A stretch of 64,000 bases of DNA from NCBI RefSeq assembly GCF_055900595.2, contig NZ_CM148325.1. One strand, written 5' to 3'. The notes below the pieces were generated by a model. It had not been told where the DNA came from and did no database searches. It worked only from the letters and a program-made list of their open reading frames with translations. Position numbers and translations under genes: made by a program. Of the stretch, positions 7,610 to 53,250 are shown in pieces (the first letter of the stretch is position 1; every line of letters starts with the position of its first letter).

Positions 7610-9250
7610 TCACACCGTAGCGAAACTAACTGGTTCACCAGCTCCGCGAGGTTCTGCCGACACAGAATGTTTGTTCAGACGGAATACGTCCACCGCCTCA
7701 GTTAATCGTGCAGCCTGTTCTTCAAGGGACACCGCCGCCGCTGAGGCCTCTTCTACCAGAGAAGCATTCTGTTGCGTCACCTTATCCATTTCGGAAATCG
7801 CCTGGCTCACCTGCGTTATGCCTCTGCTTTGCTCATCCGAGGCGGCGGCAATCTCCTGCATGATATGTGTGACACTCGCGACGGCATCAACAATAGTGCT
7901 CATGGTTTTCCCTGCCGTTGCTACCTCATCCGATCCCAGGTCAATTAATCTGACTGATTCACTGATCAAGCCTTCAATCTCTTTTGCCGCCTGAGCGCTG
8001 CGGCTTGCGAGTGTCCGTACTTCGCTGGCGACAACGGCAAATCCACGTCCTTGCTCACCCGCTCGCGCGGCTTCAACGGCAGCATTCAGTGCCAGAATAT
8101 TCGTCTGGAAAGCAATACTGTTGATGACGGAAGTGATCTCGGAAATTTTCTTCGAACTCGTGGAGATAGCGCCCATCGTTTTTACTACACCGGAAACCGT
8201 CTGCCCGCCATCGCTGGCTTTAATAGAAGCCTCTTGCGCCAGTTTGCTGGCATGATGCGCGTTATCCGCATTCTGTTTCACCGTTGCAGTGAGTTGCTCC
8301 ATGCTGGCGGCAGTTTGTTCGATTGCCGCCGCTTGTTCTTCGGTGCGAGATGACAGGTCCGCATTGCCAGCGGAAATTTCGCTGGTGCCACGATAAATCT
8401 CTTCCGCGCCCTGTCGAACGGTCCCTACAGTCATCCCCAGTGAATGCTGCATTTGCTGTAAATGATGACTTAAGCGACCGATTTCATTACGACCCGCCGG
8501 TTCATCATTCATCGTCAGATCGCCACTGGCAATTTTTTCAATCCGTTGTGCGGCATGTTGCAGTGGACGAATGACGATCCGACGTAGCACCATAAATGTT
8601 ATCAGCGTCATGACCACGGCAAGCACAAACGCGCCAATCATAAACATCACACCCAGGCGGGTACGCTGATGGGCCTGTTCCGCCAGTTGGTTGGCTCTGG
8701 TGCTACGTATCTTAACGGCTTTGTTCAAAATATCGGTATAAGCATTATCCAGCGGTCGGATCTGCTCACTTTCATGATTGATAATCGCCTCAAACATGCC
8801 ATTTTTGGCATATTTCAGCATGGGTTGGATACCCGTGATATAAGCCTGGAAACGTTGATTTAATTCAGCCTCGAGAGCTTCATCAGCAGGTGTTTTCACC
8901 GGCCGACTCCGGTAAGCCCGATAACCTTGCTGCGACTGTTTAATCTCCGATTCGGCTTGCGCAATATTTCGCTTCATTGCTTCCATTTCCGCAATACGAC
9001 TCGCGGCCCCGGCCTGAATCATATTGATCCGGGCCGAACGCAAAAAATCTGAGCTGTTCGCTAACCCGGTCCGAACCTCAATCTCTGCAGTCACATCACG
9101 CTGATCGCGATCGGCCTTCCAGAGGAAATAGCCAGCCAGGGCTGAACTCAAGGCAAACAGAAGTAAGATACCGCCAAGAATGCAGGCAAATAACGGAACC
9201 AGCCTGATGTGATGCAAAAAACCTAATCGCTGTGAGGGAGTTGTATTCAT
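7610..9250 (-). CDS. trg: Methyl-accepting chemotaxis protein III (ribose/galactose sensor) Trg
   Basis: 546 aa; two TM segments, HAMP, methyl-accepting signalling domain with conserved motifs ([21 protein letters not shown]). Confidence 0.93.
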
Positions 9251-9524
9251 TACCGTTGTCTCTCGTCCAGGTTTACTCCTGATAGAAAGTCATCGGCACT
9301 TGACGGTAATTACTTATGACCAAAAACCTCTTTGCGTCACATTTTTACAACAATTATGGCAGAGAAGAATAATGCCATTGGAATGAAGAGAGTAACGAAC
9401 GGCTAAACCGAATGACGAAAAATTCTGGAAAACAGCACGCAATTTCGTCAAGTGATTATTTTCGTCCCTAAGGAAACCTCATAGGATGCCTGCGGGTGCC
9501 TGAGACTTTCTGTTTTCAGGCTAA

Positions 9525-9581
9525 CCGGGAATCAGAAAGACGAAGGCCCCGACCGATATTTCTATCAACCGAGGCCAACGA

Positions 9582-9592
<11 letters not shown>
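9525..9592 (-). ncRNA. sokB: SokB antisense RNA of the hokB/mokB type I toxin-antitoxin locus (approximate extent)
   Basis: Minus-strand promoter-like TTGCCG-17 nt-TAACAT reading antisense across the mokB start; ends are approximate and unverified. Confidence 0.3.
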
Positions 9593-9789
<197 letters not shown>

Positions 9790-9860
9790 GGGCAAGCGCG
9801 GGGATTTTCCCCGCGCATCTGACTAGCAGATTCATTTTCTCATGGCACCCCTTTTACACT

Positions 9861-10034
9861 TCAGTTAGTGCATGTTTTTTTCGATGCACTAATAGAACCA
9901 TCATTACAGACAAATTTGCCACCTGCCGTACAGTGTGAGATCCCCCCTTTCGAACCAGAACAGGGTTTGCGCCCGGCATCGGCATAAAAGGAAACAAGCG
10001 CTCCCATAACCAAGATAAGTGCCAATTTTTTCAT
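9861..10034 (-). CDS. ydcA: Small lipoprotein-like protein YdcA
   Basis: 57 aa MKKLALILVMGALVSFYADAGRKPCSGSKGGISHCTAGGKFVCNDGSISASKKTCTN with SD upstream; below ORF-track cutoff. Confidence 0.75.
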   Translation of the reverse strand: MKKLALILVMGALVSFYADAGRKPCSGSKGGISHCTAGGKFVCNDGSISASKKTCTN

Positions 10035-10204
10035 ATAACCTCCATGGTTTATCGAATCTTATGTTCGATTTGAACGTTATACGCTGGTTTATTTTGATAC
10101 CGTTGATGAGATCAAAGATCGGGTGAATTGATTAAAGATAAGCCAGATGGACATATGGACAAGGATTATGGTTTTATTTGTCATACAAATAAATATAATA
10201 GGCG

Positions 10205-10269
10205 CTTCCGATGTAGGCCCGTATTCTTCGCCTGTACCACGGGTCGGTTTTAGTACAGGCGTTTTCTTT
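10205..10269 (+). ncRNA. rydC: RydC small regulatory RNA
   Basis: Approx. 65 nt: CTTCCGATGTAGGCCCGTATTCTTCGCCTGTACCACGGGTCGGTTTTAGTACAGGCG + TTTTCTTT, pseudoknot-capable hairpin plus U-tract, convergent on the cybB stop as in E. coli. Confidence 0.8.
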
Positions 10270-10278
10270 AAAGATCCT

Positions 10279-10809
10279 TCAGGAACGTTTACGCGGCATC
10301 ATGCGTAGAAGTGTGTTGTCCTTCCAGAAATAGTGGTGTGCCAGTGCAGCCGCAGCGTGCAACCCGATGACAAAATATCCCAGATTCGCCAGCGTCTCAT
10401 GCCACCACTTTAAGCTATCAACCCGTTCGAAATTGGCCTCTGCTGCATAAGGCATTGTCATACCAAACGCAAACCACGGGTTGCCCCGGTTATACATCAT
10501 CACCAAACCAATCACTGGCAGCGCAATAAACAGGAGATAGATCACCAAATGTCCCAAATGTGCCAGTCCCGTCATCATCGGTTTTGGTTTAGGTACAATC
10601 GGCGGAGTCGGGTTTTTAAGCCTTAACAAAAGACGAACAACCATCAGCACGAGAATTGAGATGCCACAGGAAACATGAATCATGTTGATGAGCGGCCGAT
10701 CGCTACGTGGGAAGAAACCACGAAACTCCATTGCGCAATACGCTGCGATAACCAACAAAAAGACCAGCCAGTGAATGCTGATTTGTAACCTTGAGTATTT
10801 ATTTTCCAT
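10279..10809 (-). CDS. cybB: Cytochrome b561 CybB
   Basis: ORF 10279..10845; canonical start MENKYSRLQISIHWLVFLLVIAAYCAMEF at 10809; four-TM di-haem cytochrome b561 pattern. Confidence 0.92.
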   Translation of the reverse strand: MENKYSRLQISIHWLVFLLVIAAYCAMEFRGFFPRSDRPLINMIHVSCGISILVLMVVRLLLRLKNPTPPIVPKPKPMMTGLAHLGHLVIYLLFIALPVIGLVMMYNRGNPWFAFGMTMPYAAEANFERVDSLKWWHETLANLGYFVIGLHAAAALAHHYFWKDNTLLRMMPRKRS

Positions 10810-10997
10810 AACATTTCCTGCTTTAAAACAATTTGCCGTTAACATAACGAGCTTTTCTTAAAATTTCATTAAATATTGTTCACCCGTTTTCAGTACGTTA
10901 CGTTCCACGGCAAGAATGTAGATTGCCCATCCCGCCATCCTGGTCTAAGCCTGGAAAGGATCAATTTTCATCCGAACGTTCCTGACAGGAGAAGACC

Positions 10998-11999
10998 ATG
11001 AGTAAAGTTGGTATTAACGGTTTTGGTCGTATCGGTCGACTGGTGTTGCGTCGATTACTTGAAGTCAAAAGTAACATAGACATTGTCGCTATTAATGATC
11101 TCACTTCCCCAAAAATTCTCGCCTACCTGCTGAAACATGATTCAAACTACGGACCGTTCCCCTGGAGCGTTGATTTTACGGAAGATTCACTTATCGTTGA
11201 TGGAAAAAGTATCGCGGTTTACGCCGAAAAAGAGGCTAAAAATATTCCATGGAAAGCGAAAGGCGCAGAAATCATTGTCGAATGTACTGGCTTTTATACC
11301 TCCGCCGAGAAATCGCAGGCGCACCTTGATGCTGGTGCGAAGAAGGTGTTGATTTCCGCCCCTGCCGGTGAAATGAAAACCATCGTTTATAACGTCAATG
11401 ACGACACACTGGATAGCAACGACACCATTGTTTCCGTGGCGTCATGCACCACTAACTGTCTTGCACCGATGGCCAAAGCCTTGCACGACAGTTTCGGAAT
11501 AGAAGTCGGCACGATGACGACCATTCATGCCTATACTGGCACCCAGTCACTGGTGGATGGCCCGCGAGGTAAAGATCTACGCGCTTCACGTGCAGCGGCA
11601 GAAAATATCATTCCCCACACTACAGGCGCGGCAAAAGCCATTGGTCTGGTGATCCCAGAACTGAGCGGCAAACTGAAAGGTCATGCGCAACGCGTACCCG
11701 TGAAAACAGGTTCGGTGACTGAACTGGTGTCTATTCTTGGAAAAAAAGTGACTGCCGAAGAGGTGAACAACGCGCTTAAAAACGCGACAAACAATAACGA
11801 GTCATTTGGTTATACCGATGAAGAAATAGTCTCTTCTGATATCATTGGCAGCCATTTCGGGTCGGTGTTTGATGCCACGCAAACCGAAATTACCACCGTG
11901 GGCGATTTACAGCTGGTGAAAACGGTCGCCTGGTATGATAACGAATATGGCTTCGTCACGCAGCTTATTCGCACCCTCGAAAAATTCGCTAAACTCTGA
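10998..11999 (+). CDS. gapC: Glyceraldehyde-3-phosphate dehydrogenase C, intact reading frame
   Basis: 333 aa uninterrupted ORF with GAPDH hallmarks (NGFGRIGR Rossmann motif, catalytic [10 protein letters not shown]). Confidence 0.9.
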
Positions 12000-12006
12000 C
12001 GAGCAA

Positions 12007-12036
12007 AGGCGGAGGGAAAAGCCTCCGCCTCTTTCA
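12007..12036. terminator. Bidirectional intrinsic terminator between convergent gapC and aldA
   Basis: GGCGGAGG-gaaaag-CCTCCGCC hairpin followed by TCTTTC on plus strand. Confidence 0.6.
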
Positions 12037-12040
12037 CTCA

Positions 12041-13480
12041 TTACGACTGTAAATAAACCACCTGGGTCTGCAGGTATTCATGCAAGCCATGTTTGCCATC
12101 TGCGCCGCCAATACCGGATTTACGCCATCCGGCGTGGAATCCTTGCATAGCTTCGAAGTTTTCACGGTTGATGTAAGTTTCACCAAACTTCAGCCCTTTA
12201 ATAGCTTTCATCGCGACGTTCAGATTTTGGGTATAGAGTGATGAGGTCAGGCCGTAATCACTGTCATTAGCCATTGCGATAGCCTCTTCCAGCGTGTCAA
12301 ATGCGACCACTGGCAGCACCGGGCCAAAGGTTTCCTCGTGCATGATCGACATTTCCTGACGAACATCCAGTAGCAATGTCGGCGGATAATAATATCCTTT
12401 CCCCTCTACTGCCTTGCCCCCCAACGCCACTCTCGCCCCCTCTTCGACTGCGCGCGCCACTTTTTGCTCGACCCTTTCCAGCGCCGCGGCGTTAATCAAC
12501 GGCCCCATCGCAATGTCGTTGCGTTCAGCGGGGTTACCAAATTGAACCGCCTGCATCGCTTCACCCAGCCGATTGACGAAATGATCATAAATGCCTTTCT
12601 GTACATAAACACGTTCTGCACAGTTACACACTTGCCCACTATTAATGACGCGTGAATCAACGATGGCTTTGACTGCCAGTTCAAGATCGGCATCGTCCAT
12701 TACGATAGCTGGTGCTTTACCACCCAATTCCAGACACACTTTTGTGATATTTTTTGCTGCAGTCGCCATGATCTTTTCACCTGCAGAGACGCTGCCTGTC
12801 ATACTGACCATTGCGACCTTTGGGTTACCCGCCAGTTCTTGCCCAACAGTTTCACCACGCCCCAGCACAAGGTTAAACACACCGCGTGGAAGGCCTATTT
12901 CATCGACAATTTTGGCAAAAGCAATCGCATTGTTTGGCGTAAATTCACTGGGTTTAATGACGATGGTATTACCGGTCAAAAGAGCGGGAGCCATTTTGCG
13001 GGCAATGAGGAAGAACGGGAAGTTCCACGGCAGAATGCCGGTAGTCACGCCAAGCGCACGTTTAAAGAGAAGAATATTTTCTCCTGGACGATCGCTTTGA
13101 ATAATCTCGCCTTCATAACGCCGTGCCCACTCCGCCATGTAATCGATATAGTCCGCAGTAAAAGCCACTTCGACTTCAGCCAGCTGCTGGATCTTGCCCC
13201 CTTCTTCAACAATCAGCGCACTGATTTCACCGGCGCGTTCGCGGATCCCGGCGGAGATTTTGCACAACCAACTGGCGCGTTCAATGGCAGGCAATGCTTC
13301 CCATTCTGGCTGCGCGCGCTCTGCGGCGTCGATTGCTTTGCGAGCATCTTCAGCCTGACCATCGGGAATGCGGGAAATCACCGCCTCTGTTGCGGGGTTA
13401 ACCACATAAATCCATGCGTCTCCACGCCAGGTAACAAACTGTCCATCGATATACATAGGATGTTGAACGGGTACTGACAT
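12041..13480 (-). CDS. aldA: Lactaldehyde dehydrogenase AldA
   Basis: 479 aa aldehyde dehydrogenase family with catalytic Cys/Glu motifs (GQVCNCAERVYVQ, ELGGKAP). Confidence 0.93.
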   Translation of the reverse strand: MSVPVQHPMYIDGQFVTWRGDAWIYVVNPATEAVISRIPDGQAEDARKAIDAAERAQPEWEALPAIERASWLCKISAGIRERAGEISALIVEEGGKIQQLAEVEVAFTADYIDYMAEWARRYEGEIIQSDRPGENILLFKRALGVTTGILPWNFPFFLIARKMAPALLTGNTIVIKPSEFTPNNAIAFAKIVDEIGLPRGVFNLVLGRGETVGQELAGNPKVAMVSMTGSVSAGEKIMATAAKNITKVCLELGGKAPAIVMDDADLELAVKAIVDSRVINSGQVCNCAERVYVQKGIYDHFVNRLGEAMQAVQFGNPAERNDIAMGPLINAAALERVEQKVARAVEEGARVALGGKAVEGKGYYYPPTLLLDVRQEMSIMHEETFGPVLPVVAFDTLEEAIAMANDSDYGLTSSLYTQNLNVAMKAIKGLKFGETYINRENFEAMQGFHAGWRKSGIGGADGKHGLHEYLQTQVVYLQS

Positions 13481-13673
13481 GGGAGACTCCTGTGATTAAT
13501 GTGTGTATTTGGTAAATTATTTGTTAATTAATATCAATCATCATAGAGACAGCATCTTGAAAGGACAAATCTGTGAAGAGCTTCATAAAAAGAAGGGTAA
13601 AAGGAATAAAAGGCAGAAAAAAAAGTAAGGAGTCATGCCCGTTTGCAAACAGTTGTTCTCAAACGGGCAATTT

Positions 13674-14474
13674 TCAACGTAGCGAACGACTTTCCATCGC
13701 CTCGATGAGCACCGCATCGTGTTTCAGCGTTTGCCATGCCTGGATGACTTCTGCCGGAAAATCAACGTGAACGATAAAATCTCGCCCGCGTGGACCGTAG
13801 CCATCGCTATCATCGCGTAAACGTGGCAGCTCGCCAGTGAGTAGTGAGAGATAACGCTCAACCGCCCATAATCCTTCTAACTGGTTAATAAAGATTACAC
13901 TGTCTTCGTTATTTCCCAACTGAGGAACGAATCCGGGATAACTTAACCAACGAGGTGCGTCTGGATTGTCACCGGTAATACGACGGAACGTCGCCATTGT
14001 GCGCCGCTGCATGGTGGGGTCCTGAACAACGATAGCCGTATGAACTCTTTCTACGGCCTGATTCAATAGCGCGATGCTAAAGCGTGCGTTTTCACCGCAG
14101 TTTGTTGACTGGTCTTCAATCCAGATTTTTTCATGCGGAATGTGCCAGAACTGATGAGCGATATCCGCCAGGATGGTAGCTTCTGCTCTGCCAGTGGTGC
14201 GGATAGTGTTGTAGTGCGGATGCTGTGCGATGGCGCTATACAAAAAAGTTGTCGAGTGACCGATACCACCACTAATCAGTAGAGGAATTTGCTGATCGCG
14301 GGCAATCTTACATGCCGCATCGATAGTCGGCATAACCGCATTGCCTGCAAGGATCACGCAATCGGCCTGATACGGCACCTCACCGGAGAAATCATCCTGC
14401 GCCAGCCACTGACCGATAACATTTATGGCATCTATGGTTGCCGGCGAAAGCGTCGGAAACGGGGTAATGTTCAT
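13674..14474 (-). CDS. ydcF: DUF218 (YdcF) family protein, SAM-binding
   Basis: 266 aa ORF matching YdcF family, conserved neighbour of aldA. Confidence 0.88.
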
Positions 14475-14863
14475 GGTTCCTCCTTATCGTTCCCTTAAGA
14501 ATACTGCGTGAGATAATAATGAGAAGCGGAGCACTCTGAAAGGAAGATGATGCTTTTTCTATCGCGCCATCGCGAACCAGACACTGGTTTTAGTCATACT
14601 GTATTTGCGGAGAAACTGTTGATAAAACATCAATAACATAATGTTGTATCATTTTTAAATGATAGATAATCTGGTGTGATATTTATATAATATTCATTCT
14701 TATATTTCTCAATCAAGGGGAACATTTGCAACACGCTCATTAGTGGTAATTCCTTAAATTTTAATTGAATAATATCTGCTCTCAGCTATAAACTACTATC
14801 TGTCTATGGTGCCGAATTACCATTTTTATTCATCAACACAATGCTATATGTCGAGAAACATAC

Positions 14864-15358
14864 ATGGAAAAAATATTTCAACTTTTAGAAACCGCCTGGC
14901 CTGCCGTAAAAGCAACAGGACTTACAGGTTGCGTAACCGCTCCAGAAACTGAAGATAACCTTCTTTTATTTGAGGATAAATACGCGACACATATTCCAAA
15001 AGACTATCGGCAGTTATTATCTCATTTTGGCGCATGTCATTTTGCCGATCCTCAAATTTATACTTTGAATGATCTGGACAGATATTACCCTCTATTTTTT
15101 CAACAATGGGAAGAGTATAAAAAAGAATATCCATCATTGAACAACATTGATCCTTTTCCTGTTGGCAGTTTTGGCGACGGGAGTGTCGCTTTTCTTGACC
15201 GCAACAGCCTAAAAATTTATATTCTAATTCATGATTTTGGTATATTTACCGATGATGTTGGTGATTTCCCTTGTGAGTTATGCTTTGAAAATTTTGGTGA
15301 GTTAGTGGAAATGCAAGTTGAAATGATTCTTTATTTACAGCAATATCATGTATCATGA
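14864..15358 (+). CDS. SUKH / SMI1-KNR4 family protein (candidate orphan immunity protein of a polymorphic-toxin system)
   Basis: 164 aa; motifs IPKDYRQLLSHFGA and PFPVGSFGDGSVAFLDRNSLKIYILIHDFG resemble the SMI1/KNR4 fold; lies in an AT-rich insert between ydcF and hrpA. Confidence 0.55.
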   Translation: MEKIFQLLETAWPAVKATGLTGCVTAPETEDNLLLFEDKYATHIPKDYRQLLSHFGACHFADPQIYTLNDLDRYYPLFFQQWEEYKKEYPSLNNIDPFPVGSFGDGSVAFLDRNSLKIYILIHDFGIFTDDVGDFPCELCFENFGELVEMQVEMILYLQQYHVS

Positions 15359-15395
15359 ATAATAAAATTATCACTCATGTTCTTACTGAAAAAAA

Positions 15396-15656
15396 GTGAA
15401 TTCTATAGCAGAGAAATATTGTAAAATGTATAATCTTAATAGCTCGTTAGCATACCAAATCACGGCTATTAAATTTCTTCCTGATGGTATGAAATCATTC
15501 GGCCTTGATGTTCCATTATGGATGGTCGTCAGAGATGTTAACGGTTGGGATGATATGGAAATTACGATTTTTATTTGTGACAAAAATAGTGAAGTTCTTT
15601 GTTGCAGTAATATTTGGTATCCAGTATATCGTCCTCATCAAGCAGATTTGTTATAA
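15396..15656 (+). CDS. Hypothetical small protein (86 codons, GTG start) in AT-rich insert
   Basis: ORF-track frame MNSIAEKYCKMYNLNSSLAYQITAIKFLPDGMKSF...; no recognisable family; codon usage atypical; could be a second immunity-type gene or non-coding. Confidence 0.3.
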   Translation: MNSIAEKYCKMYNLNSSLAYQITAIKFLPDGMKSFGLDVPLWMVVRDVNGWDDMEITIFICDKNSEVLCCSNIWYPVYRPHQADLL

Positions 15657-15701
15657 GCACGTAAGGAGTACCGCCCTTGCTATTTTTCAGAATTCATAAA
15701 G

Positions 15702-15758: not shown

Positions 15759-18700
15759 TTAACCGCTAATCTGCTCCATCGCCTGCAAAATACGCTTATC
15801 TGAAATCGGATAAGGCGTACCAAGTTGTTGAGCGAAGTAACTAACGCGCAGTTCTTCTATCATCCAACGGATCTCTTTCACATCCTCATCCTCACGACGT
15901 GCGGGCGGCAGTTTGTTGATCCATTGCTGCCACGCCTGCTGGACGTTTTCAACTTTCAGCATCTGAGCACGGTCACGGTGCGGGTCAACCGCCAGTTTTT
16001 CCAGACGCTTTTCAATCGCCTGCAAATAACGCAGCGTGTCGCCCAGCCGTTTGAAGCCATTACCAGTGACAAAACCGCGATACACCAGCCCACCCATCTG
16101 CGCTTTAATGTCAGAAAGCCCCAGCGCCATGGTCATATCCACCCGTCCTTTCAGGCGTTTGTTGATATTGAACACTGCCGTAAGGATTTGCTCGACCTGC
16201 TTCGCAATATCCACCACCGTGTCGTTCAGTTCAGCGCGGACTTTTTCATGAAGCGCAGCAAAGCCTTCTTCCGTCCAGACCGGGCCGCCCGCCTCATCAA
16301 TCAATTTATCAACACCGCAGGAGATGCAGTCGTCAATGAGATCCAGCACTTTACCGTACGGGTTAAAGTAGAGACCCAGCTTCGCTTTGTTCGGCAGTTT
16401 CTCATGCAGATATTTAATTGGCGACGGAATGTTCAGCAACAGCAAGCGACGCAAACCACGCCACATAGCCTGCTGTTGTTCCTGCGGGTTATCAAAAAGC
16501 TTAATCGCTACGCTGTCACGCTCATCCACCAGCGCAGGCCAGGCCTTCACTTTGTAGTTGCCACGTTTCTGCTCGTAGTGATCCGGTAAATTACCGAAGC
16601 TCCAGATATGTAACCCGCTTTGCTCAATACCATCATCGGCAACGGCGGAAAGCGTTTCCTGCACTTTGCCTTTCAGGGCGTCTTTCAGATCCTGTAATGA
16701 GCGCCCTTCTTTTAGCTTCTTATTTTTGTCGTCCACCACGCGGAAGGTGATTTTCAGGTGATCGGGCACCTGCTCCCAGTGCCAGTCTTCGCGGTCAACG
16801 GTAACGCCGGTCATCCGCCGTAGCTCGCGCTCAAGGCTGTCGAGCAACGGCAGTTCCAGCGGCGTGACGCGACCTAAAAACGCTTCGGCGTAGTTTGGCG
16901 CGGGCACAAAATTACGCCGTACCGGTTTCGGCAACGATTTGATTAGAGCAATCACCAGTTCACGGCGCAGGCCGGGGATCTGCCATTCAAACCCGCTTTC
17001 CTCAACCTGGTTAAGTAACGGCAGCGGAATATGCACGGTCACACCGTCAGCATCCGCCCCCGGCTCAAACTGATAGCTTAAACGCAGCTTGAGATTACCC
17101 TGATGCCAAAAGTTCGGGTAATCCAGCTTGCTGATTTTTTCCGCCCCTTCTTTGATCAACATGCTCTTTTCAAAGTTGAGCAAATCAGGCGTTTCGCGGC
17201 TGACTTTTTTCCACCAACTATCAAAGTGACGTGCAGAGATCACATCATGGCTGATGCGCTGGTCGTAAAACTCAAACAACGTTTCGTCATCCACCAGAAT
17301 ATCGCGGCGACGTGATTTGTGTTCCAGTTCTTCCACTTCTGCCCGTAGTTTCAGGTTTTCACGGAAGAATGCGTGACGCGTCTGCCAGTCACCTTCCACC
17401 AGCGCGTGGCGAATAAAAAGTTCACGACACAGCGCAGGATCAATCTGGCTGTAGTTGACCTTACGCGCAGCAACAATCGGCAACCCGTAAACGGTGACTT
17501 TTTCAGTTGCCATCACCGCGCCCTGCGCCCGTTCCCAGTGCGGTTCGCTGTAGGAGCGTTTAATCAAATGCTGGGCAACTGGCTCTACCCATTCCGGATC
17601 GATACGTGCCGCAATGCGCCCCCACAGGCGGCTGGTTTCTACCAGTTCCGCCACCATTGCCCATTTCGGCGGCTTCTTGAATAAACCAGAACCGGGGAAG
17701 ATGGAGAAACGCGCGTTACGTGCGCCGGTATATTCCTGTTTATCGGCATCTTTCATGCCGATATGCGAAAGCAAACCTGTCAGTAAGGCGATGTGAATTT
17801 CGCGATACTCCGCCGGTTCGCTGTTAACCGGAATGCCAAGTTCTTTCACCACCTGGCGCAACTGGGTGTAGATATCCTGCCATTCGCGCACGCGCAGATA
17901 GTTAAGGTAATCGGTACGGCACAGGCGACGGAAGGCGTTTGAAGAGAGCGCCTTTTGCTGCTCGCCGAGATAATTCCACAGATTTACAAACGCCAGGAAG
18001 TCGGATTCTTTATCGTGAAAGCGACGATGTTTTTCGTCCGATGCCTGCTGCTTGTCCATTGGCCGCTCACGCGGGTCCTGAATAGAGAGCGCGGAAGTGA
18101 TAATCATCGCCTCACGCACGCAGCCATGTTTCTGCGCTTCCAGCACCATTCGCGCCAGACGAGGATCGACTGGCAGTTGCGAGAGCTGGCGACCGAGCGG
18201 CGTCAGTTTATAGGCGCTGGCCTGTTCATCAGTGGTGATCGCGCCCAGCTCTTCGAGCAGACGCACGCCATCCTGGATATTGCGTTTATCCGGCGCTTCT
18301 ACAAACGGGAACGCAGCGATATCGCCCAGCCCCAGCGCGGTCATCTGCAAAATAACCGAGGCCAGGTTGGTACGCAGAATCTCCGGATCGGTAAATTCCG
18401 GGCGCGAGAGGAAATCGTCTTCGGAATAAAGACGAATGCAGATCCCTTCTGACACACGACCACAGCGGCCTTTACGCTGATTAGCTGAAGCCTGCGAAAT
18501 GGGCTCAATCGGCAGACGCTGCACTTTGGTGCGATAGCTGTAGCGGCTGATACGCGCCGTACCTGGGTCGATAACGTATTTAATCCCCGGCACAGTCAGC
18601 GAGGTTTCCGCGACGTTAGTCGCCAGCACAATGCGCCGTCCGCTGTGCGACTGGAAGACGCGGTTCTGCTCGCTGTTCGAAAGCCGTGCATAAAGCGGAA

Positions 18701-19661
18701 GAATTTCCGTATGGCGTAAGTTCAGCTTGTTCAGCGCATCGGCGGTATCGCGAATTTCTCGCTCGCCGCTCATAAAAATCAGAATGTCGCCAGGGCTTTC
18801 CTGGCTCAGTTCGTCTACGGCATCGAAAATCGCCTGCAACTGGTCGCGCTCGGTGTCATCAGCTTCTTCAACAATCGGGCGATAGCGCACCTCCACCGGA
18901 TAGGTACGACCGGAGACTTCGATAATCGGCGCATTATTAAAGTGGCGCGAAAAGCGTTCCGGGTCGATAGTCGCGGAAGTGATAATGATTTTTAGGTCAG
19001 GACGCCGCGGCAGCAACTCTTTCAAATAACCGAGGAGAAAATCGATATTCAGGCTGCGTTCGTGCGCTTCGTCAATAATGATGGTGTCGTACTGCATCAG
19101 CAGGCGGTCTTGCTGGATCTCCGCCAGCAGGATACCGTCGGTCATCAGCTTGACCATCGTGTTATCACTTACGTGATCGCTGAAACGCACTTTATACCCG
19201 ATGCAACCGCCCGGCTCCGTTTTCAGCTCTTCCGCAATACGGTTCGCCACCGTTCGTGCCGCCAGACGACGCGGCTGGGTGTGGCCGATCAGCCCTTTAA
19301 TCCCGCGGCCCAGTTCCATACAGATTTTCGGTAACTGAGTCGTTTTACCGGAACCCGTTTCCCCGGCGACGATCACCACCTGGTGATCACGGATTGCTTC
19401 GAGAATGTCCTGCTTTTTCTGACTAACCGGCAAATTGTCCGGATAAGTGATTTCCGGTCGTGCTGCTTCACGCAGCAGGACTTTCCCTGCCGCCTGGTCA
19501 ATCTCTTTCGCCATCTCCTGGAAAATGGCCTGTTGTGCATCAGGATTTTTAACCTTCTTCACGCCGTGCAGACGGCGGGAAAAACGCAGTCTGTCACGCA
19601 GCATCAGCGAATCCAACCGTTGCTGCAAGGCCGTAAAGGTCAATTTTTGTTGTTCTGTCAT
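15759..19661 (-). CDS. hrpA: ATP-dependent RNA helicase HrpA (DEAH-box)
   Basis: 1300 aa; Walker A GETGSGKTTQ, DEAH box, HA2/OB domains. Confidence 0.95.
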   Translation of the reverse strand: MTEQQKLTFTALQQRLDSLMLRDRLRFSRRLHGVKKVKNPDAQQAIFQEMAKEIDQAAGKVLLREAARPEITYPDNLPVSQKKQDILEAIRDHQVVIVAGETGSGKTTQLPKICMELGRGIKGLIGHTQPRRLAARTVANRIAEELKTEPGGCIGYKVRFSDHVSDNTMVKLMTDGILLAEIQQDRLLMQYDTIIIDEAHERSLNIDFLLGYLKELLPRRPDLKIIITSATIDPERFSRHFNNAPIIEVSGRTYPVEVRYRPIVEEADDTERDQLQAIFDAVDELSQESPGDILIFMSGEREIRDTADALNKLNLRHTEILPLYARLSNSEQNRVFQSHSGRRIVLATNVAETSLTVPGIKYVIDPGTARISRYSYRTKVQRLPIEPISQASANQRKGRCGRVSEGICIRLYSEDDFLSRPEFTDPEILRTNLASVILQMTALGLGDIAAFPFVEAPDKRNIQDGVRLLEELGAITTDEQASAYKLTPLGRQLSQLPVDPRLARMVLEAQKHGCVREAMIITSALSIQDPRERPMDKQQASDEKHRRFHDKESDFLAFVNLWNYLGEQQKALSSNAFRRLCRTDYLNYLRVREWQDIYTQLRQVVKELGIPVNSEPAEYREIHIALLTGLLSHIGMKDADKQEYTGARNARFSIFPGSGLFKKPPKWAMVAELVETSRLWGRIAARIDPEWVEPVAQHLIKRSYSEPHWERAQGAVMATEKVTVYGLPIVAARKVNYSQIDPALCRELFIRHALVEGDWQTRHAFFRENLKLRAEVEELEHKSRRRDILVDDETLFEFYDQRISHDVISARHFDSWWKKVSRETPDLLNFEKSMLIKEGAEKISKLDYPNFWHQGNLKLRLSYQFEPGADADGVTVHIPLPLLNQVEESGFEWQIPGLRRELVIALIKSLPKPVRRNFVPAPNYAEAFLGRVTPLELPLLDSLERELRRMTGVTVDREDWHWEQVPDHLKITFRVVDDKNKKLKEGRSLQDLKDALKGKVQETLSAVADDGIEQSGLHIWSFGNLPDHYEQKRGNYKVKAWPALVDERDSVAIKLFDNPQEQQQAMWRGLRRLLLLNIPSPIKYLHEKLPNKAKLGLYFNPYGKVLDLIDDCISCGVDKLIDEAGGPVWTEEGFAALHEKVRAELNDTVVDIAKQVEQILTAVFNINKRLKGRVDMTMALGLSDIKAQMGGLVYRGFVTGNGFKRLGDTLRYLQAIEKRLEKLAVDPHRDRAQMLKVENVQQAWQQWINKLPPARREDEDVKEIRWMIEELRVSYFAQQLGTPYPISDKRILQAMEQISG

Positions 19662-19852
19662 AACGTTAGTGGGCAGCAGGCTGCCTGATTAATTTTCTTT
19701 TAAATGATAGATATAGAGTACCACATCGCGGCTTTCTATGCGTTGTTCAATAAATTCGAACATAGGCTTCGATTTATTGCGCTATCTCTGTGGCAGGATT
19801 GTGAATAAAGTGTCAACAAGCAACGGGGCATCGCCCATTCAAACATCTATAA

Positions 19853-20467
<615 letters not shown>

Positions 20468-20520
20468 CCGGACACTATTTTGATGTGGACTGTAGATATT
20501 CAGTCCACATCTCAATCCAC

Positions 20521-23584
<3,064 letters not shown>

Positions 23585-23599
23585 TTTCTCTATTTTCCT

Positions 23600-24496
23600 T
23601 CAGTAACAGCAGTAGCGAATAAAATAAAAAAATACCGGAGCGGTGAAAATTAATGAGTCAATCCTGTCAAGGAGTCCGCCATGTCCTGGTAATAGTTTTC
23701 CACTATCTTTAACACCAATATCTTGTTTGATGGCTGACATCACTACATCGCCGCAAAAACCACTAATACCAATTAACAAACCCGCTAATAATGCCTGTAA
23801 TGTATCTAGCGGTGTCAGCAACGGTCCAATAATCAGTGACGCAATCATGGTGGTGATTACGCCGCCCATCAGACCTTCCAATGTTTTTCCCGGGCTGACT
23901 TTGGGGACCACTTTTCTTCTGCCGCAGGATTTTCCCCATAAATACTGTGCAATATCGTTTGACTCGGTTAATGCCAAAAGAAATAACACCAGTAACGCCC
24001 CGCCCTGGATATTTGTGGTTGGCAACATTAATAACCAGGCGGCATGACTCAAGGCGAAAACGGTCATTATCCAGCCCCAAAAAATGGCGCTCACGGTATG
24101 CAGAAAACCGGAGGGGTCACCCACTAAAACTCGCCAAGTGGCTAATATCAGAAACCCAGCCAAAGGTATAAATAACAGAAACAGCTCAAAGCAATTAAAA
24201 CCGATAAGAAAATAGTTAAGAGGAATACCCCAATATAACCAACGCGGAAAATGTACAGATATAAGCGTACAATATTCTTTCAATGCCAGAAAACTTATCA
24301 GCGCAAAAAACGTCAACGTCATCCAGCGTGGACCTGAAATGACCAGTGAAAAACAAATGACGATGCCCCACCAGGTACGAATACGTAATGTAACTTCATC
24401 TCCTTTTCTCTCCGGTAACCGCCATACCAGAAAACGGTTTATCAGCGTTGCTAAAATTAACAACACGAAAAGTATTGCCAGAGATTTTTCCAGCAT
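23600..24496 (-). CDS. ynbB: YnbB, CDP-diglyceride synthetase (CdsA)-like membrane protein
   Basis: 298 aa polytopic membrane protein with CTP-transferase-like C-terminus. Confidence 0.85.
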   Translation of the reverse strand: MLEKSLAILFVLLILATLINRFLVWRLPERKGDEVTLRIRTWWGIVICFSLVISGPRWMTLTFFALISFLALKEYCTLISVHFPRWLYWGIPLNYFLIGFNCFELFLLFIPLAGFLILATWRVLVGDPSGFLHTVSAIFWGWIMTVFALSHAAWLLMLPTTNIQGGALLVLFLLALTESNDIAQYLWGKSCGRRKVVPKVSPGKTLEGLMGGVITTMIASLIIGPLLTPLDTLQALLAGLLIGISGFCGDVVMSAIKQDIGVKDSGKLLPGHGGLLDRIDSLIFTAPVFFYFIRYCCY

Positions 24497-25101
24497 TACT
24501 TTTCAGCGCTCATAAGGAGCACGCTTCGACAACGATTAATCGCAGTCCAGAGAAGCAGAATTGAAGCAATGCTCCATAAAAGATTATTCCATTGCATCCA
24601 CTGTGGATAAATGGCAACGGCCAGCCCCCACAAACCAAATATTAACGCACGATCGCTTTTGCCAAATGGACCGGCATAACTGCGAATACCGTTAATCGTC
24701 TGCGCGAGTAAACCGCAAAACTCAGTCAATATGGTGCAAAATAACATGAGTATTACGAGTGATGCGTTACTTTCCGGTAAAAATAAAAACGGTAAATAAA
24801 GCGCAATATCGGAAATAACATCGCCAGTTTCATTCAAAATCGCCCCAAGACGTGTTTGCTGATTACACTCACGCGCCATCATGCCATCCAGCGCATTGAG
24901 TGCCATACGGACAAAAAGCACGATGGGCAATAGCAAAAAGAGGATGGGTCGTGCCACCAACATCAACAGCAATCCGGTAAGAAGAGAAAGCGCCAGTGCA
25001 GCAAGAGTGATGTGATTCGCTGTAACATGGTGCTTATAAAGCCAAAACATCGTCGGCCTTAACAGCGACTGAAAGAGCGGTTTTATCTGGTAGAGCGTCA
25101 T
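24496..25101 (-). CDS. ynbA: YnbA, CDP-alcohol phosphatidyltransferase family
   Basis: ORF 24496..25107; D-G-x2-A-R...G-x3-D-x3-D-like motif (ALDGMMARE...GDVISD); start probably MTLYQIK at 25101. Confidence 0.85.
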   Translation of the reverse strand: MTLYQIKPLFQSLLRPTMFWLYKHHVTANHITLAALALSLLTGLLLMLVARPILFLLLPIVLFVRMALNALDGMMARECNQQTRLGAILNETGDVISDIALYLPFLFLPESNASLVILMLFCTILTEFCGLLAQTINGIRSYAGPFGKSDRALIFGLWGLAVAIYPQWMQWNNLLWSIASILLLWTAINRCRSVLLMSAEK

Positions 25102-25271
25102 TATCAATCCTTGATAATTCGGTTTGCGCTATGGTGCATCAATTCCCCTGACGGAGATATCGCAACACGCCGCTTCATTAAAAATTCAGAATATATCAAG
25201 GTATTGGGGACTCACCGTCAGGAATGATTATCCCCAATAGATCAAGTGGTTAAAAATTATTACGCTGTTAT

Positions 25272-27578: not shown

Positions 27579-27641
27579 ATGCACTCCATGCCATTAAAAA
27601 AGAAACAAAAGGGAAATGCATCTTTCCCTTTTGTATATTCG

Positions 27642-28502: not shown

Positions 28503-28632
28503 CGCACCCTGCCCTGTAATAAAACGAATTCAGAAAAATCAGTATAGAAATGAAAAGAGATAAATAATGCGAAGGCGTAAACAAGATTACTGGATGAGTT
28601 GCTCTATTGTCCTGAAAAACACCAAAACAAAA

Positions 28633-28655
28633 CGCGTCAAGCGCCGCATCCGGCA
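28633..28655. repeat. REP (repetitive extragenic palindrome) element
   Basis: GCGTCAAGCGCCGCATCCGGCAA, typical E. coli REP consensus. Confidence 0.6.
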
Positions 28656-28709: not shown

Positions 28710-31700
28710 TTAGAACGTTTTCTTGAAGTTCAGCATCACGCCTTTATCGCTGATACCATCCTCTTTCCAGTGGTAAGCATCCAGATTCAGCGAACTTTCT
28801 TTGCTGCTGTACTTCACGCCGACGCTTGCCAGACTGTTGATGCCGCCGCCCTTTTGCCCATCATCGACATTAAAGTGCTGGCTGCCTGCGCCTGCCAGGC
28901 TTGCCGTGCGCTGGCTCTTGCTGTAGCTGAGGTTCGGCCCACCTTCCAGCGCGGCGTTCGCACTCCAGCCGTCTTTGCCTGCGTAGTCCAGCTTCAGCCC
29001 AACGATGCTGTCCACCGCCGTTTCGCTGCCGCTGTTCATGCTCAGGTTAAAGTCTCCGGCATTGCGCTCCTGATAGTCGCCTTCCAGCATGTGACGCAGT
29101 TTCAGACCCGCATATGGCGTGATTTTCAGCCCTTCGCGCGGTTCAAAGGTTTTCGCCCCTTCGCTACGGAACTCCAGGTACTGTTGTTTCACATTCGTGT
29201 CTGCCGTCTTACTGATGTCGCCGTAAGCCACCGAACGGCTGCTGTCCAGTTGGTGAATATCGTAACGCAGCGCGTTATTCCAGCTCATACCGTTGTCAAA
29301 GGACATCTGATGCTTCAGGCCAAAGAACTGGCTGTAGCCGCCTGTAACACCATTATCACCCGCTTTCTGCGCACCGTCGCCGTCCAGACGGGCGATACCG
29401 TACTCCAGGCTCATGGTCTGGTTTTCGCTCAGGTCGAGGGTTTTACGCAGCGCCAGCATGTCGTACTCGGTATTGTTACCCAGCTCAGCACGCGGATCGC
29501 CTTTCGCCACCACGTTAAATGCCAGAGCGTTGCCCATCTTCGGTGCGGCGTCTGCCAGCATACTAAAGCGATTGCTTAACACACGCGCTTCGCGGAATAC
29601 CGTGGTCGCCTGGCTACCGCTAATTTGCTTAAGTGCGCTGTTCAGCTCTGCAGTGGTGCCGACGTTCAGACTGGTATACAGCTCATTGTTGGTGTAACCC
29701 GCATCCAGCGCTTTTGCCACGTCATTCACTGAGGCATCCGTCGCCACATCGGTGTAGGCTTTTTTGCTCATGGTCACGTCAACGTTGCCGCTGGCGTCGG
29801 TACTGCCTGTCGCCTGCCAGACAACAGATGTCGAAGTGATCGCTTGCGCATCGGTCAGGTTGCTGCCTTGCACCACATCATCAAAGCTGGCGGTTTTGTC
29901 CGCCGTTCCCGCCGCAAAAGCAGTGTTGATCTCCACGCCTTTCATACTGGCGTTATTGACCATCAGCTTACCAGCGCTACCATCGGCGTTCGTCCCCACC
30001 ACGTAACCATTGAGGTTGTTCATGCCATCGTTGCGGCTAACGGAAGAAGAATGACTGTCGTCGTATGGCGTAATGGTGGGTTCTTCCGGCGCGGTAAAGT
30101 CGACATAGTGTACTTCCGTACCGTCTCCCCCTTCACCACTGCCCTCCATCACCGTGCCAGATTGTTTAATTAATCCGGAACCATTCACGCTGTCGTCAAT
30201 ATAAACAGTGCCGTTGTTAACAATATGACCATTGCTCCCGAGCTTGCTGAAGGCATATGAATTGCTGGCATATATATTGATGGTGCCGTTATTCTCAATC
30301 ACCGCATCAGCCGTGGCATCGGACTCCAGTTGCATCCCTATCATGCCTGTCCTGCTGGTTCCTTGCGTGCCAACGTTTATGGTGCCGTTGTTGATCATTT
30401 TGGCTTTACCGTGCGCCGACATCGCCACATTACTATTTTTGTCGATATTAATAATGCCGTCGTTTATTGCCTTGCTGGCCGTGTTTGATGTCAGGATCTG
30501 CCCGTTGATGACGCCAGACTGGCCATTATAGAACGTATGCCCATCACCACCGGTGCTAATTCTCATGTCACCTTCAACTGTCCCCCAGTTATTAAAATGT
30601 CCTGTCCACAGCGCATTCGTCGCCACCGTTGCCACACCGCCTTCCAGATTGTTGAAGGTGCCACCTTTATCAACCGATGCGTTATGTACGGTACCAGCAT
30701 TATTGAAGGTAGAGGCTGCAGCAAAAGTTATTTTCTCTACTTTTCCACCGGCCTGATTATTCATTACGGCAGACCCGGAAGAACATTTCCAGGCATTCAC
30801 CGTTCCGGTGTTATAAAAACGGCTGGCCCACTGGTCAACCGTGTTGATGCTGCCTGAGTTGTGAATAATCGATCCTGCAACAGTCGTTCCGACTTGCCCG
30901 GTCACCATACCTTCGTTAGTGAACACTCCGCCATCCACAGAAACAGTTTTTGTCGTGCCGTGGTTGGTGTATTCCCCACCCGTTGCGATATCAACCTCAT
31001 TAATACTGCCCGTGGTTTCATTGACCAGATGACCAAAGTCAGCCACGGTGACAGGTCCCCCGGTGACCGTACCCGTGTTTGTTACCAGGGTTTCGGCGGT
31101 TGCCGTGATATCAGTAGTACCGCCATATGAAGACAGGTTAAGCGTTTCCCCGTCAGCCGTAATAATGTCACCATTTCTCCAGCTTAATGAAACAAACCCA
31201 TCAGTCGAGTTATAGGCGTTATTGTCCTGGCAAATACCAAAAGTACAGATGGTCCCGTAATTAACAATAGTCCCGCTGCCATCGTTATAGAACGCCTGCC
31301 CGTTTTCAGCATTAATATTGATGATGCCCGTCTGATCATTAATCGCAGTGGCACCATTGTAAACAGCCATGCCGACCAATTTATTTGGCCCCAGCGTATC
31401 ATCATCATTTTCATTTACTTCCAGATTTATAGTTCCCTGGTTAATAATAATGTTACCTGGCTTCATCGCAGCCATACCGGCACCGGAATTATAGAGTGTT
31501 ATTTCACCACCCTGCTGATTAATGGCGGTAGAATTAACGCTGGCACCAGAACTGTCTGTACCCACAGCCATCCCGACAGCATAATCTTTGGCGCTGTCAT
31601 GAGCGATATTGGACGCCAGACTGGAAGTATCGTTTTCATCAACCCATAATGCGTCAATGAAAATCTTACCCATATTGTCAATGGTTGAATTATTGGAGGC

Positions 31701-34202
31701 CAGCATGCCAACACTCCCCCGGCCGTACATTTGGATCTCACCGGCAGTATTATTTAAAGCGGTGCCATTGTTGCCTGCCGTCATCCCCGTCAGACTAATG
31801 ACTTGATTATTAAAAATTAAAGGGTCACTCAAACCTTGAGCGTTCAGACTATTGAAAATACGTCCCTGCGCGAGTACCTTACTGGTGATGGCACTGTTAT
31901 TAACAACTCGACCACCATAGACGCTCAAATACGCAGAACTAGCAGAGTCTGATGTATTCCCCTCTACGCCGTAGATAGAAATCGTTACGTTGTTATTATT
32001 TACAGCTAGCGACTCTTCACCAGTAGCCCTGGCAAAGCCAATATTACCCAGTTCTACATCACCATTATTTATCATCTGCGAACCGGAATTCACCAGTACA
32101 ACCTGTGATGTGTCACTATTATAATGATCAAATGTATTTATATCTTTTAGGATAAAAGTGGCGTTGCGGCCAAGTTCTAAATGGGCTCGGTTATTCAGTT
32201 GAATGATATCGCCTAATCCAAGCGGAAAAACACCACTGATTGTTGAATCCCCATTTAGATACAGAGTAGAGTGCCCATCGATTTTGATAACAGGCGTATC
32301 GCCATAACCATTACGTTTTAAAGCAGGTGTGGAGCCATCCTGTAGAGTATTTTCTTCGCCAGCTAAATGGATACCACCATTAATTTCGACGGTATTACCG
32401 TCACCCGACACAACCAGACCATTAATATTTTCCTGGCTGCCATCCATTTCATTATAGCTACGAGAAGTGACTTCACTGTCAGCAACAATGGTAAGATTGC
32501 CATTTAATACGATATTATTGTCGTGTCCCTGCACCTGAATGCCAACAGAAGGGGTAAAAAAGTCATTTATTGAATGCTCTCCGGCCTGATTTTTATCCAC
32601 CAGAATATTACCGGTAATTTCAACTTCATTGCCATCACCGGCTACATTTACCCCTGTCGCAACACTGCCAGTCACATTAAGCTCATTTGTCGCCAGCGTC
32701 ATGGCGTTATTATTTCCAGACACATCCAGACCGGTTGAATAATCCCCTACATCCACACGGCCAGCCAGAGAAATCAGACCATCATCTCCAACGACGCGAA
32801 TCCCGGTACTGAAATTATTAGCAATGATGTCCCCCACATTGATAAGAGTAGAATGATTACCCTCAATCAGAATCCCTGTCGCATTGGCCTCTGAACTACC
32901 ATTACTGACGGAAATATCCCCCCTGTTAATGAACGTCGACGCATCACCACTGAGAGAAACACCCAGCGAATTTTCATCCACGACCGTTATATTGCCTTTA
33001 TTGCTGACGATCGCGCCATTACCCTCAACATCAATACCCCGTGCAGCATTGCTAACGTATAAATCCCCTTCCTGTATAACCGTCGCATTATTACCAACGA
33101 TTTTGCTGCCCGTTGAATTTTGCCCATCAACCGTCATATGTCCTTTATTATCGGTCCTGACATCATTACCGCTAATAACGGCCCCTATTCCGCCGTTATT
33201 GACAGTGGAGTCGCCAGTGTTATTTAAGATTGTACGATCGCCATTGACGATAACCGCCGTGCCAGCATCGACCACCGTCTGACCGTTATTATTGATGGTT
33301 ATATTATCGCCGGTCAGGATACCGACCACCGAATCTTCACCGACAGCCTCTGTTTTACCCTCGTTTGTCAGCGCAATGTTGTTACCATTAATCATCATCA
33401 CCGTGCCGCCATTCAGGGCCGTGTTACCGCCCTGGTCAGTGATAATCGCATCATTAACGGTAATTATTCTGCCCGTTGTTCCATCAGACACGACACTGGC
33501 TAACTGTGTGACGTGGAGTTTACCTTCGTCATCGTAGCGCCATTCCATATCACCTGTGGTACTCACACCACTAAAGATGGCGGTATGAGTCTCTTCATGG
33601 TTTTCCCACTCTGTCACAATGGTTTTTCGGCCATCTTTTGCCGACAGCGTGTAGCTACCATCGACATTCTGTATATAGGTGAACGTTGCCCCGCGAATCT
33701 TCAGGGTTTGCGCGTCCTTGTCCCATGTCACATTGTTATCAAAGACAACGGGTTCTGTTCTCGGTAGGTCAACATCATCACCGCTATTGTCGGGTGGAAT
33801 AACATTACCGCCGTTATCTGGCTTTACAGGTATACCTGAATCTTCATCACTGGGAACGGGTAGCGGTAGAGGGCCATTATCATCTGGCGGTATGGGCTGG
33901 GGAAAAGAAGAGTGAGCAGAATGATCATTGTCATGAGACAATTCAATCACTGCGAGTGTTGCCAGTACCGCCGTGGCACCTAATGCCAGTAACGAGCTGA
34001 AACCATTATTTGTAACAACAGCACATTTTTCTGGCACTGTTTTCAACTTCGTTGACGGTCGGGCGTGCCCTTCTGACTGACATGTCATTTGAGAGCTTCT
34101 GCGCATACTGTCTGCACTCTCGCCTTCTGTTATTTCCGCCCCCCAGCTTTGGCCACTTAACGCTATAGCGATACACGCTGATAATAACGTTTTCTTTTGC
34201 AT
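28710..34202 (-). CDS. ydbA: YdbA autotransporter (type Va) with long beta-helical repetitive passenger and C-terminal beta-barrel, uninterrupted
   Basis: 1830 aa single ORF; signal peptide; Pro-rich linker; many degenerate ~20-aa Gly/Asn/Thr/Val-rich repeats (NNGTINV...-type); C-terminal barrel ending ...MLNFKKTF. Confidence 0.88.
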   Translation of the reverse strand: MQKKTLLSACIAIALSGQSWGAEITEGESADSMRRSSQMTCQSEGHARPSTKLKTVPEKCAVVTNNGFSSLLALGATAVLATLAVIELSHDNDHSAHSSFPQPIPPDDNGPLPLPVPSDEDSGIPVKPDNGGNVIPPDNSGDDVDLPRTEPVVFDNNVTWDKDAQTLKIRGATFTYIQNVDGSYTLSAKDGRKTIVTEWENHEETHTAIFSGVSTTGDMEWRYDDEGKLHVTQLASVVSDGTTGRIITVNDAIITDQGGNTALNGGTVMMINGNNIALTNEGKTEAVGEDSVVGILTGDNITINNNGQTVVDAGTAVIVNGDRTILNNTGDSTVNNGGIGAVISGNDVRTDNKGHMTVDGQNSTGSKIVGNNATVIQEGDLYVSNAARGIDVEGNGAIVSNKGNITVVDENSLGVSLSGDASTFINRGDISVSNGSSEANATGILIEGNHSTLINVGDIIANNFSTGIRVVGDDGLISLAGRVDVGDYSTGLDVSGNNNAMTLATNELNVTGSVATGVNVAGDGNEVEITGNILVDKNQAGEHSINDFFTPSVGIQVQGHDNNIVLNGNLTIVADSEVTSRSYNEMDGSQENINGLVVSGDGNTVEINGGIHLAGEENTLQDGSTPALKRNGYGDTPVIKIDGHSTLYLNGDSTISGVFPLGLGDIIQLNNRAHLELGRNATFILKDINTFDHYNSDTSQVVLVNSGSQMINNGDVELGNIGFARATGEESLAVNNNNVTISIYGVEGNTSDSASSAYLSVYGGRVVNNSAITSKVLAQGRIFNSLNAQGLSDPLIFNNQVISLTGMTAGNNGTALNNTAGEIQMYGRGSVGMLASNNSTIDNMGKIFIDALWVDENDTSSLASNIAHDSAKDYAVGMAVGTDSSGASVNSTAINQQGGEITLYNSGAGMAAMKPGNIIINQGTINLEVNENDDDTLGPNKLVGMAVYNGATAINDQTGIININAENGQAFYNDGSGTIVNYGTICTFGICQDNNAYNSTDGFVSLSWRNGDIITADGETLNLSSYGGTTDITATAETLVTNTGTVTGGPVTVADFGHLVNETTGSINEVDIATGGEYTNHGTTKTVSVDGGVFTNEGMVTGQVGTTVAGSIIHNSGSINTVDQWASRFYNTGTVNAWKCSSGSAVMNNQAGGKVEKITFAAASTFNNAGTVHNASVDKGGTFNNLEGGVATVATNALWTGHFNNWGTVEGDMRISTGGDGHTFYNGQSGVINGQILTSNTASKAINDGIINIDKNSNVAMSAHGKAKMINNGTINVGTQGTSRTGMIGMQLESDATADAVIENNGTINIYASNSYAFSKLGSNGHIVNNGTVYIDDSVNGSGLIKQSGTVMEGSGEGGDGTEVHYVDFTAPEEPTITPYDDSHSSSVSRNDGMNNLNGYVVGTNADGSAGKLMVNNASMKGVEINTAFAAGTADKTASFDDVVQGSNLTDAQAITSTSVVWQATGSTDASGNVDVTMSKKAYTDVATDASVNDVAKALDAGYTNNELYTSLNVGTTAELNSALKQISGSQATTVFREARVLSNRFSMLADAAPKMGNALAFNVVAKGDPRAELGNNTEYDMLALRKTLDLSENQTMSLEYGIARLDGDGAQKAGDNGVTGGYSQFFGLKHQMSFDNGMSWNNALRYDIHQLDSSRSVAYGDISKTADTNVKQQYLEFRSEGAKTFEPREGLKITPYAGLKLRHMLEGDYQERNAGDFNLSMNSGSETAVDSIVGLKLDYAGKDGWSANAALEGGPNLSYSKSQRTASLAGAGSQHFNVDDGQKGGGINSLASVGVKYSSKESSLNLDAYHWKEDGISDKGVMLNFKKTF

Positions 34203-35172: not shown

Positions 35173-35179
35173 CATCCCC

Positions 35180-52341: not shown

Positions 52342-53250
52342 TTAACTTTGCAGATAGCCGCATTCTCGCCGAAATTGCGTGATTAATGACGCGGTCAGTG
52401 GTGTCTGGCGACTATCACGCCGCTGAATCAAATAATAGGCCGCTTTCGGTAAAATTTCGCTAACCGGCAACATCACCAGCCCCTGTCCGTGCAAGGGATC
52501 GCAGCCCATTTCTTCAGGTAGTATGCTGAGAAAATCGCTTTTTGCCACCAGACTGATACAGGCTGAAAACGTCTCGCAGACTACGCCGACCTGTGGCGTT
52601 TGCGCCTGATCGTCAAGCAATTCACTCAACTGTTTGTAGTAGCTGCCGTGTGGCGTCGGCATTGTCCAGCTGTAGTCCAGTAACTGTTTGATCGAACGGG
52701 CACCAATGGCGGGATGTCCCGGGCGGCAAAAGATCGCGAATTGCTTTTCCAGTAATTTCTCAAAAGTAAATTCGTGGTCGTAGGGTCCCTGATAATAGGT
52801 ATTGATGGTGAAATCCAGTTCTCCCTGTCGCAATTCATTAATCATCGACACCAGTTGCCCTTCCATAATGCGTACTTTTACCTGCGGATGCTGCTGATGA
52901 AAACGAGATATGACAGCTGGCATCAGACTGCGGGAAATACTGGCCCCCATGCCGATATTAATTTGCCCTGCCAGTTGCCCTTGTCGTTGGCGAATATCCT
53001 CTTGCGCTGCGCGCAGCTCTTCAAGAATAAGACTGGCGTGCTGATAAAAACTTTCACCGGCATCAGTTAACGTCACGCCTTTACTACGGCGAAAAAAGAG
53101 TTGCGCCGCTAACCCTTCTTCCAGCTCCTGAATAGATTTACTCAGTGCCGGTTGCGACATATTCAACATGCGGCTCGCTCCGCGAATGCTGCCCTGACGA
53201 GCCACTTCAACAAAAGCCCGAATTTGATGAATTTTTACCTGAAAAGCCAT
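52342..53250 (-). CDS. abgR: LysR-family regulator AbgR
   Basis: 302 aa, N-terminal HTH, divergent from abgABT. Confidence 0.92.
   Translation of the reverse strand: MAFQVKIHQIRAFVEVARQGSIRGASRMLNMSQPALSKSIQELEEGLAAQLFFRRSKGVTLTDAGESFYQHASLILEELRAAQEDIRQRQGQLAGQINIGMGASISRSLMPAVISRFHQQHPQVKVRIMEGQLVSMINELRQGELDFTINTYYQGPYDHEFTFEKLLEKQFAIFCRPGHPAIGARSIKQLLDYSWTMPTPHGSYYKQLSELLDDQAQTPQVGVVCETFSACISLVAKSDFLSILPEEMGCDPLHGQGLVMLPVSEILPKAAYYLIQRRDSRQTPLTASLITQFRRECGYLQS

Follow-up and report, generated by a model that had tools for sequence, protein, structure and literature searches.

An intact gapC gene, predicted to encode a second glyceraldehyde-3-phosphate dehydrogenase in Escherichia coli, at the locus of a K-12 pseudogene

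The stretch of DNA analysed here (the window; 64,000 nucleotides of contig NZ_CM148325.1, RefSeq assembly GCF_055900595.2) contains the E. coli gapC locus, which lies between cybB and aldA (Table 1). The open reading frame list of the window has a single frame of 333 amino acids, beginning with ATG and ending with TGA, that coincides exactly with the gapC coordinates, and in the near-identical sequence NZ_CP098223.1 the same gene is annotated as 'gap: type I glyceraldehyde-3-phosphate dehydrogenase' (WP_032302977.1). The intergenic region upstream has a mean column identity of 96% across seven aligned E. coli alleles, and the Shine-Dalgarno sequence within it is invariant in all seven. On the other side of the gene there is a hairpin between gapC and the convergent aldA, and the region around it (11997-12045) folds at -20.2 kcal/mol, with a z-score of -3.8 relative to shuffled sequences. 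A consensus terminator scan did not report this hairpin, and the T-run downstream of it looks weak (TCTTTC); it is nonetheless a probable bidirectional terminator, shared by the two genes.

Table 1. Coordinates of the gapC locus and of two open reading frames in a nearby insert, as positions in the window
Feature	Position	Strand	Description
cybB (cytochrome b561)	10279..10809	-	ORF and annotation mapped onto the window; divergent upstream neighbour, defines the locus
cybB-gapC divergent intergenic region	10810..10997	+	188 nt; presumed gapC promoter
Shine-Dalgarno sequence AGGAG	10987..10991	+	6-nt spacer to the gapC ATG; read from the sequence
gapC coding sequence	10998..11999	+	333 codons plus TGA; intact type I NAD-dependent GAPDH; Pfam and NCBIfam matches
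GC-rich hairpin between convergent gapC and aldA	12007..12030	.	9-bp stem, 6-nt loop; from folding
aldA (aldehyde dehydrogenase)	12041..13480	-	ORF and annotation; convergent downstream neighbour, defines the locus
SMI1/KNR4-family ORF in the ydcF-hrpA insert	14864..15358	+	164 aa
Second ORF in the ydcF-hrpA insert	15396..15656	+	86 aa

The predicted protein matches both GAPDH domains over their full length (Gp_dh_N, PF00044, residues 3-102, E = 1e-35; Gp_dh_C, PF02800, residues 155-313, E = 3e-58), and over residues 3-325 it scores 447.1 bits against the NCBIfam model for type I GAPDH, TIGR01534, for which the curated cutoff is 367.2. A frame of 333 codons with scores of this order rules out a chance open reading frame. 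Judged by its sequence, the protein belongs to the type I phosphorylating GAPDHs, all of whose defining sequence features it carries. More specific assignments within the superfamily do not hold. The GapA type (PRK15425) is rejected at 299 bits against a cutoff of 662, with only 46% identity to GapA itself, and erythrose-4-phosphate dehydrogenase (Epd, or GapB) is rejected by two models, PRK13535 (281 bits against 539) and TIGR01532 (277 against 531), although GapC has the superfamily and the domain architecture in common with it. The ArsJ-associated GAPDH family (NF033735) is likewise rejected at 308 bits against a cutoff of 450, the neighbours being cybB and aldA with no arsJ adjacent. The NADP-dependent 'GapC' of Clostridium acetobutylicum was disregarded, as the likeness is in name only, and a knockout study of a K. 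pneumoniae 'gapC' does not enter the functional evidence, as its gene may not be the orthologue.

The residues on which catalysis depends are all in place. The window protein has the catalytic Cys150 within an SCTTNC motif (Ser149-Cys150-Thr151; VASCTTN), together with His177, and a GxGxxG Rossmann motif for NAD binding within residues 5-14. An earlier note on this DNA had described a complete 333-codon gapC with the catalytic cysteine and NAD-binding motifs, and the reading frame, the domains and the individual residues bear this out. The closest structures in the PDB, 98.5% identical to the window protein, are 7C5F and 13 related entries (7C5H and 7C5K among them) of the enzyme crystallised as EcGAPDH1, and the structure paper names 16 residues for catalysis, NAD binding and two phosphate sites. 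All 16 are kept in the window: besides Cys150 and His177, these are Arg11, Ile12, Asp34, Lys78, Ser120 and Asn315 in the NAD site, Thr180, Thr182 and Arg232 in the substrate-phosphate (Ps) site, Ser149, Thr151, Thr209 and Gly210 in the inorganic-phosphate (new Pi) site, and His207.

The crystallised enzyme can be traced to an allele of the same locus. By exact sequence match, wild-type EcGAPDH1 is the intact GapC (WP_000048667.1) of E. coli B C2566, of the O103 strain ML775 and of other strains. It has the same length as the window protein, 333 amino acids, and is identical to it at 328 of them, the five differences (EcGAPDH1 residue first, window residue last) being V29I, G140S, Q262N, T265N and A300T. 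None of the five falls on any of the 16 named functional sites; four are at positions that already differ between GapA and GapC, and the isoleucine of the window at position 29 is the GapA residue. Crystals of EcGAPDH1 were obtained with NAD and glyceraldehyde 3-phosphate (G3P), and its G3P dehydrogenase activity was followed through the formation of NADH. The enzyme is active, with a KM of 0.73 mM for G3P; C150A abolishes activity, and C150S and H177A lower it by thousands-fold (PMC8615399). GapA (PDB 1S7C) is of similar length and has the fold, the catalytic Cys/His pair and the NAD-dependent chemistry in common with GapC, but is encoded at a different chromosomal locus.

In K-12 the orthologous locus (gapC_1/gapC_2, b1417/b1416) likewise lies between cybB and aldA, and in strain BW25113 RefSeq annotates the gene as 'frameshifted; internal stop'. 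Alignment identifies both lesions. Codon 39 is AAA in the window and TAA in K-12 (K39*), and a run of seven A residues at codon 248 in the window is reduced to six in K-12 by a 1-bp deletion. The earlier note had taken gapC to be a pseudogene in K-12, and the annotation and the alignment agree with it. Within the gene the two sequences are 95.8% identical at the nucleotide level, with 42 mismatches; apart from the two lesions, 40 codons differ, 33 of them synonymously. K-12 also carries R18G, which the window gene lacks. The window gene is free of both K-12 lesions and keeps every functional residue.

To place these two states of the gene within the species we turn to 5,426 complete E. coli genomes, in 5,417 of which the gapC locus is found (in 5,408 the match spans 80% or more of the query). 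Counted with exact 61/62-mers, the stop allele at codon 39 is present in 1,152 genomes (21%, a lower bound that covers the K39* lesion alone), the AAA codon of the window in 3,221, and about 1,050 are unclassified at this codon owing to flanking polymorphism or seed failure. By the same count the A6 run of the K-12 frameshift is found in 1,041 of the 5,426 (19%), and the A7 run on a K-12-like background in 1,426. Thirteen genomes sampled at even steps down the match ranking include ten with an intact 333-codon gapC and three with a pseudogene, which has both lesions in K-12 and F1267 and the stop alone in EC291. By these genome counts gapC is intact in some three quarters of E. coli genomes, if not more, and as most of the species has it in this state, an intact gene is no distinguishing mark of the window strain. 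Beyond E. coli, E. albertii, Citrobacter, Trabulsiella and Klebsiella have full-length orthologues at 88-96% identity, and the E. coli GapC protein cluster alone has 4,797 member sequences. That intact gapC exists is already known, and the structure and kinetics of the enzyme are published; the gene has been described as intact in environmental isolates, with mutations that truncate the protein in laboratory strains (PMC2949598; see also PMC1796617).

The carriers of K39* include human, pig and river-water isolates. As roughly one in five sequenced E. coli share the K-12 lesions, with human, animal and water sources among them, the pseudogene is a trait of lineages, and on these counts the lesions are a natural polymorphism rather than a laboratory artefact. 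The stop, with R18G beside it, is seen against two distinct sets of synonymous sites. In EC291 it stands without the frameshift in a gene whose synonymous sites are otherwise those of the intact allele of strain 7_26_9A, whereas K-12 combines stop and frameshift, with the 1297KP allele as background. The pattern suggests that the 5' segment of gapC has been moved by recombination and that the stop is older than the frameshift.

Other disruptions and rearrangements are seen at the locus. E. coli B C2566 has an IS1 in the intergenic promoter region between cybB and gapC, upstream of an intact gapC frame. In the raw-milk isolate SCPM-O-B-7615, the 3' four-fifths of gapC are missing together with the end of aldA, in a deletion associated with IS1. 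Of 5,435 matches to the gapC region, five come from records that carry a plasmid label, and the region occurs twice in at least one genome.

When eight E. coli alleles are compared in pairs, the more divergent pairs have dN/dS values of 0.03-0.06, with dS up to 0.2, which indicates purifying selection on the protein. A consensus scan for sigma-70 promoters across positions 10700-12200 returned none, where 2.1 would be expected by chance, and did not locate -10 or -35 elements. This result does not weigh against expression in our reading, since dependence on sigma-S is reported for the K-12 promoter: a sigma-S RNA polymerase ChIP-seq peak maps to gapC_1/cybB in K-12 (PMC4447067), and transcription of K-12 gapC is rpoS-dependent (PMC2759082). 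The K-12 transcript is also induced under carbon limitation (PMC4512719). Since the window keeps the upstream region of gapC, regulation like that of K-12 is a reasonable expectation, and by analogy with the K-12 promoter reports the window gene is probably transcribed in stationary-phase or carbon-limited (RpoS-type) conditions.

We propose that the window gapC is an intact chromosomal single-gene unit that encodes an NAD-dependent phosphorylating type I GAPDH, a paralogue of GapA, and we put the probability of this reading at about 90%. The gene is real and very probably functional. Cys150 of the enzyme would form a thioacyl intermediate with glyceraldehyde 3-phosphate, with His177 acting as the base and NAD+ accepting the hydride, and attack by phosphate would then release 1,3-bisphosphoglycerate. 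The suggestion in the earlier note that the strain may express a second functional GAPDH is a reasonable one, as the lesions are absent, the functional residues are kept and a 98.5%-identical allele is active, with expression presumed from the conserved upstream region.

An unlikely alternative is that the frame, although intact, is silent or redundant and is on its way to being lost as in K-12, so that it contributes no meaningful GAPDH activity. The number of genomes with K39* or the frameshift, isolates from humans, pigs and river water included, would fit such a gene, and so would the IS1 upstream of gapC in E. coli B, the IS1-associated 3' deletion in SCPM-O-B-7615 and the failure to find a sigma-70 consensus promoter between 10700 and 12200. 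Some lineages at least can do without the gene, as gapC is inactivated in about one in five of the complete E. coli genomes. However, a dN/dS of 0.03-0.06 sustained over a dS of up to 0.2 indicates purifying selection over the long term, the upstream region and the Shine-Dalgarno sequence are conserved, the K-12 promoter is still bound by sigma-S and regulated, and intact orthologues are kept in several enterobacterial genera.

Far less probable still is a GAPDH-fold enzyme whose main role lies elsewhere, whether as an Epd-like enzyme, in arsenate resistance or as an NADP-dependent gluconeogenic GAPDH. In its favour are the scores of 281 bits with the Epd model and 308 bits with that for the ArsJ-associated GAPDH, but they are far under the cutoffs of 539 and 450 and reflect the shared superfamily only. 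Moreover, arsJ is not adjacent to gapC, the aspartate that hydrogen-bonds NAD (Asp34) is present, and both NAD and G3P were used in crystallising the near-identical EcGAPDH1, whose assayed activity is that of a G3P dehydrogenase.

For the window strain itself an intact gapC has little import beyond correct annotation. The distribution of the gene has a wider bearing, in that metabolic models based on K-12, and reasoning from gapA knockouts, assume one GAPDH, whereas most other E. coli, the window strain included, probably have two. The occurrence of the K-12 lesions in other strains also qualifies the way in which an older paper is usually cited. Tentatively, and as an idea that we think somewhat doubtful, GapC might be a niche-specific, non-redundant GAPDH, used for instance in stationary phase or outside the host; the natural K-12-type loss in about one fifth of E. 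coli would then mark an ecological split, with the deep-branching lineage of the window on the side that retains the gene, under strong purifying selection.

The closest genome to the window, at 99.96-99.99% identity, is that of the South Korean dog isolate E. coli Z0117EC0005 (NZ_CP098223.1). Identity to K-12 is only 93.6-96.5% over the syntenic stretches 7860-14547, 16023-30392 and 34851-44302, so that the divergence spans the whole region and is not confined to gapC, and just 16 of the 5,426 complete genomes reach 99% identity or more across the gapC locus. From this low identity to K-12 and the small number of close genomes, the strain belongs to a deep-branching, rarely sequenced E. coli lineage. 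Two insertion sequences of Z0117EC0005, an IS150 between hokB and trg and an IS200/IS605 tnpA between ydcH and rimL, are absent from the window (at ~9567-9569 and ~2812-2817 respectively).

Several further differences from K-12 are found along the window. A ydbA-type autotransporter gene (28710..34202, minus strand) is a single intact frame of 1,830 amino acids, while in K-12 IS2 and IS30 interrupt ydbA, whose two parts are each annotated as a partial pseudogene; after gapC, it is the second gene of the window to be intact where the K-12 copy is broken. The K-12 feaRB-tynA-paa cluster for phenylacetate and amine catabolism, roughly 19 kb, is absent both from the window and from Z0117EC0005, the site of its absence lying at ~30392-34851, between ydbL and the autotransporter. 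Conversely, the window has an insert of about 1.1 kb (~14548-15690) between ydcF and hrpA which K-12 lacks, and which contains the last two reading frames of Table 1. Beside these frames a related genome annotates a partial stub that has no N-terminus, and the insert may be the remnant of a polymorphic-toxin/immunity cassette. Lastly, the LysR regulator gene abgR (52342..53250, minus strand) is an intact frame of 302 codons in the window but is annotated with an 'internal stop' in the 99.96%-identical Z0117EC0005.
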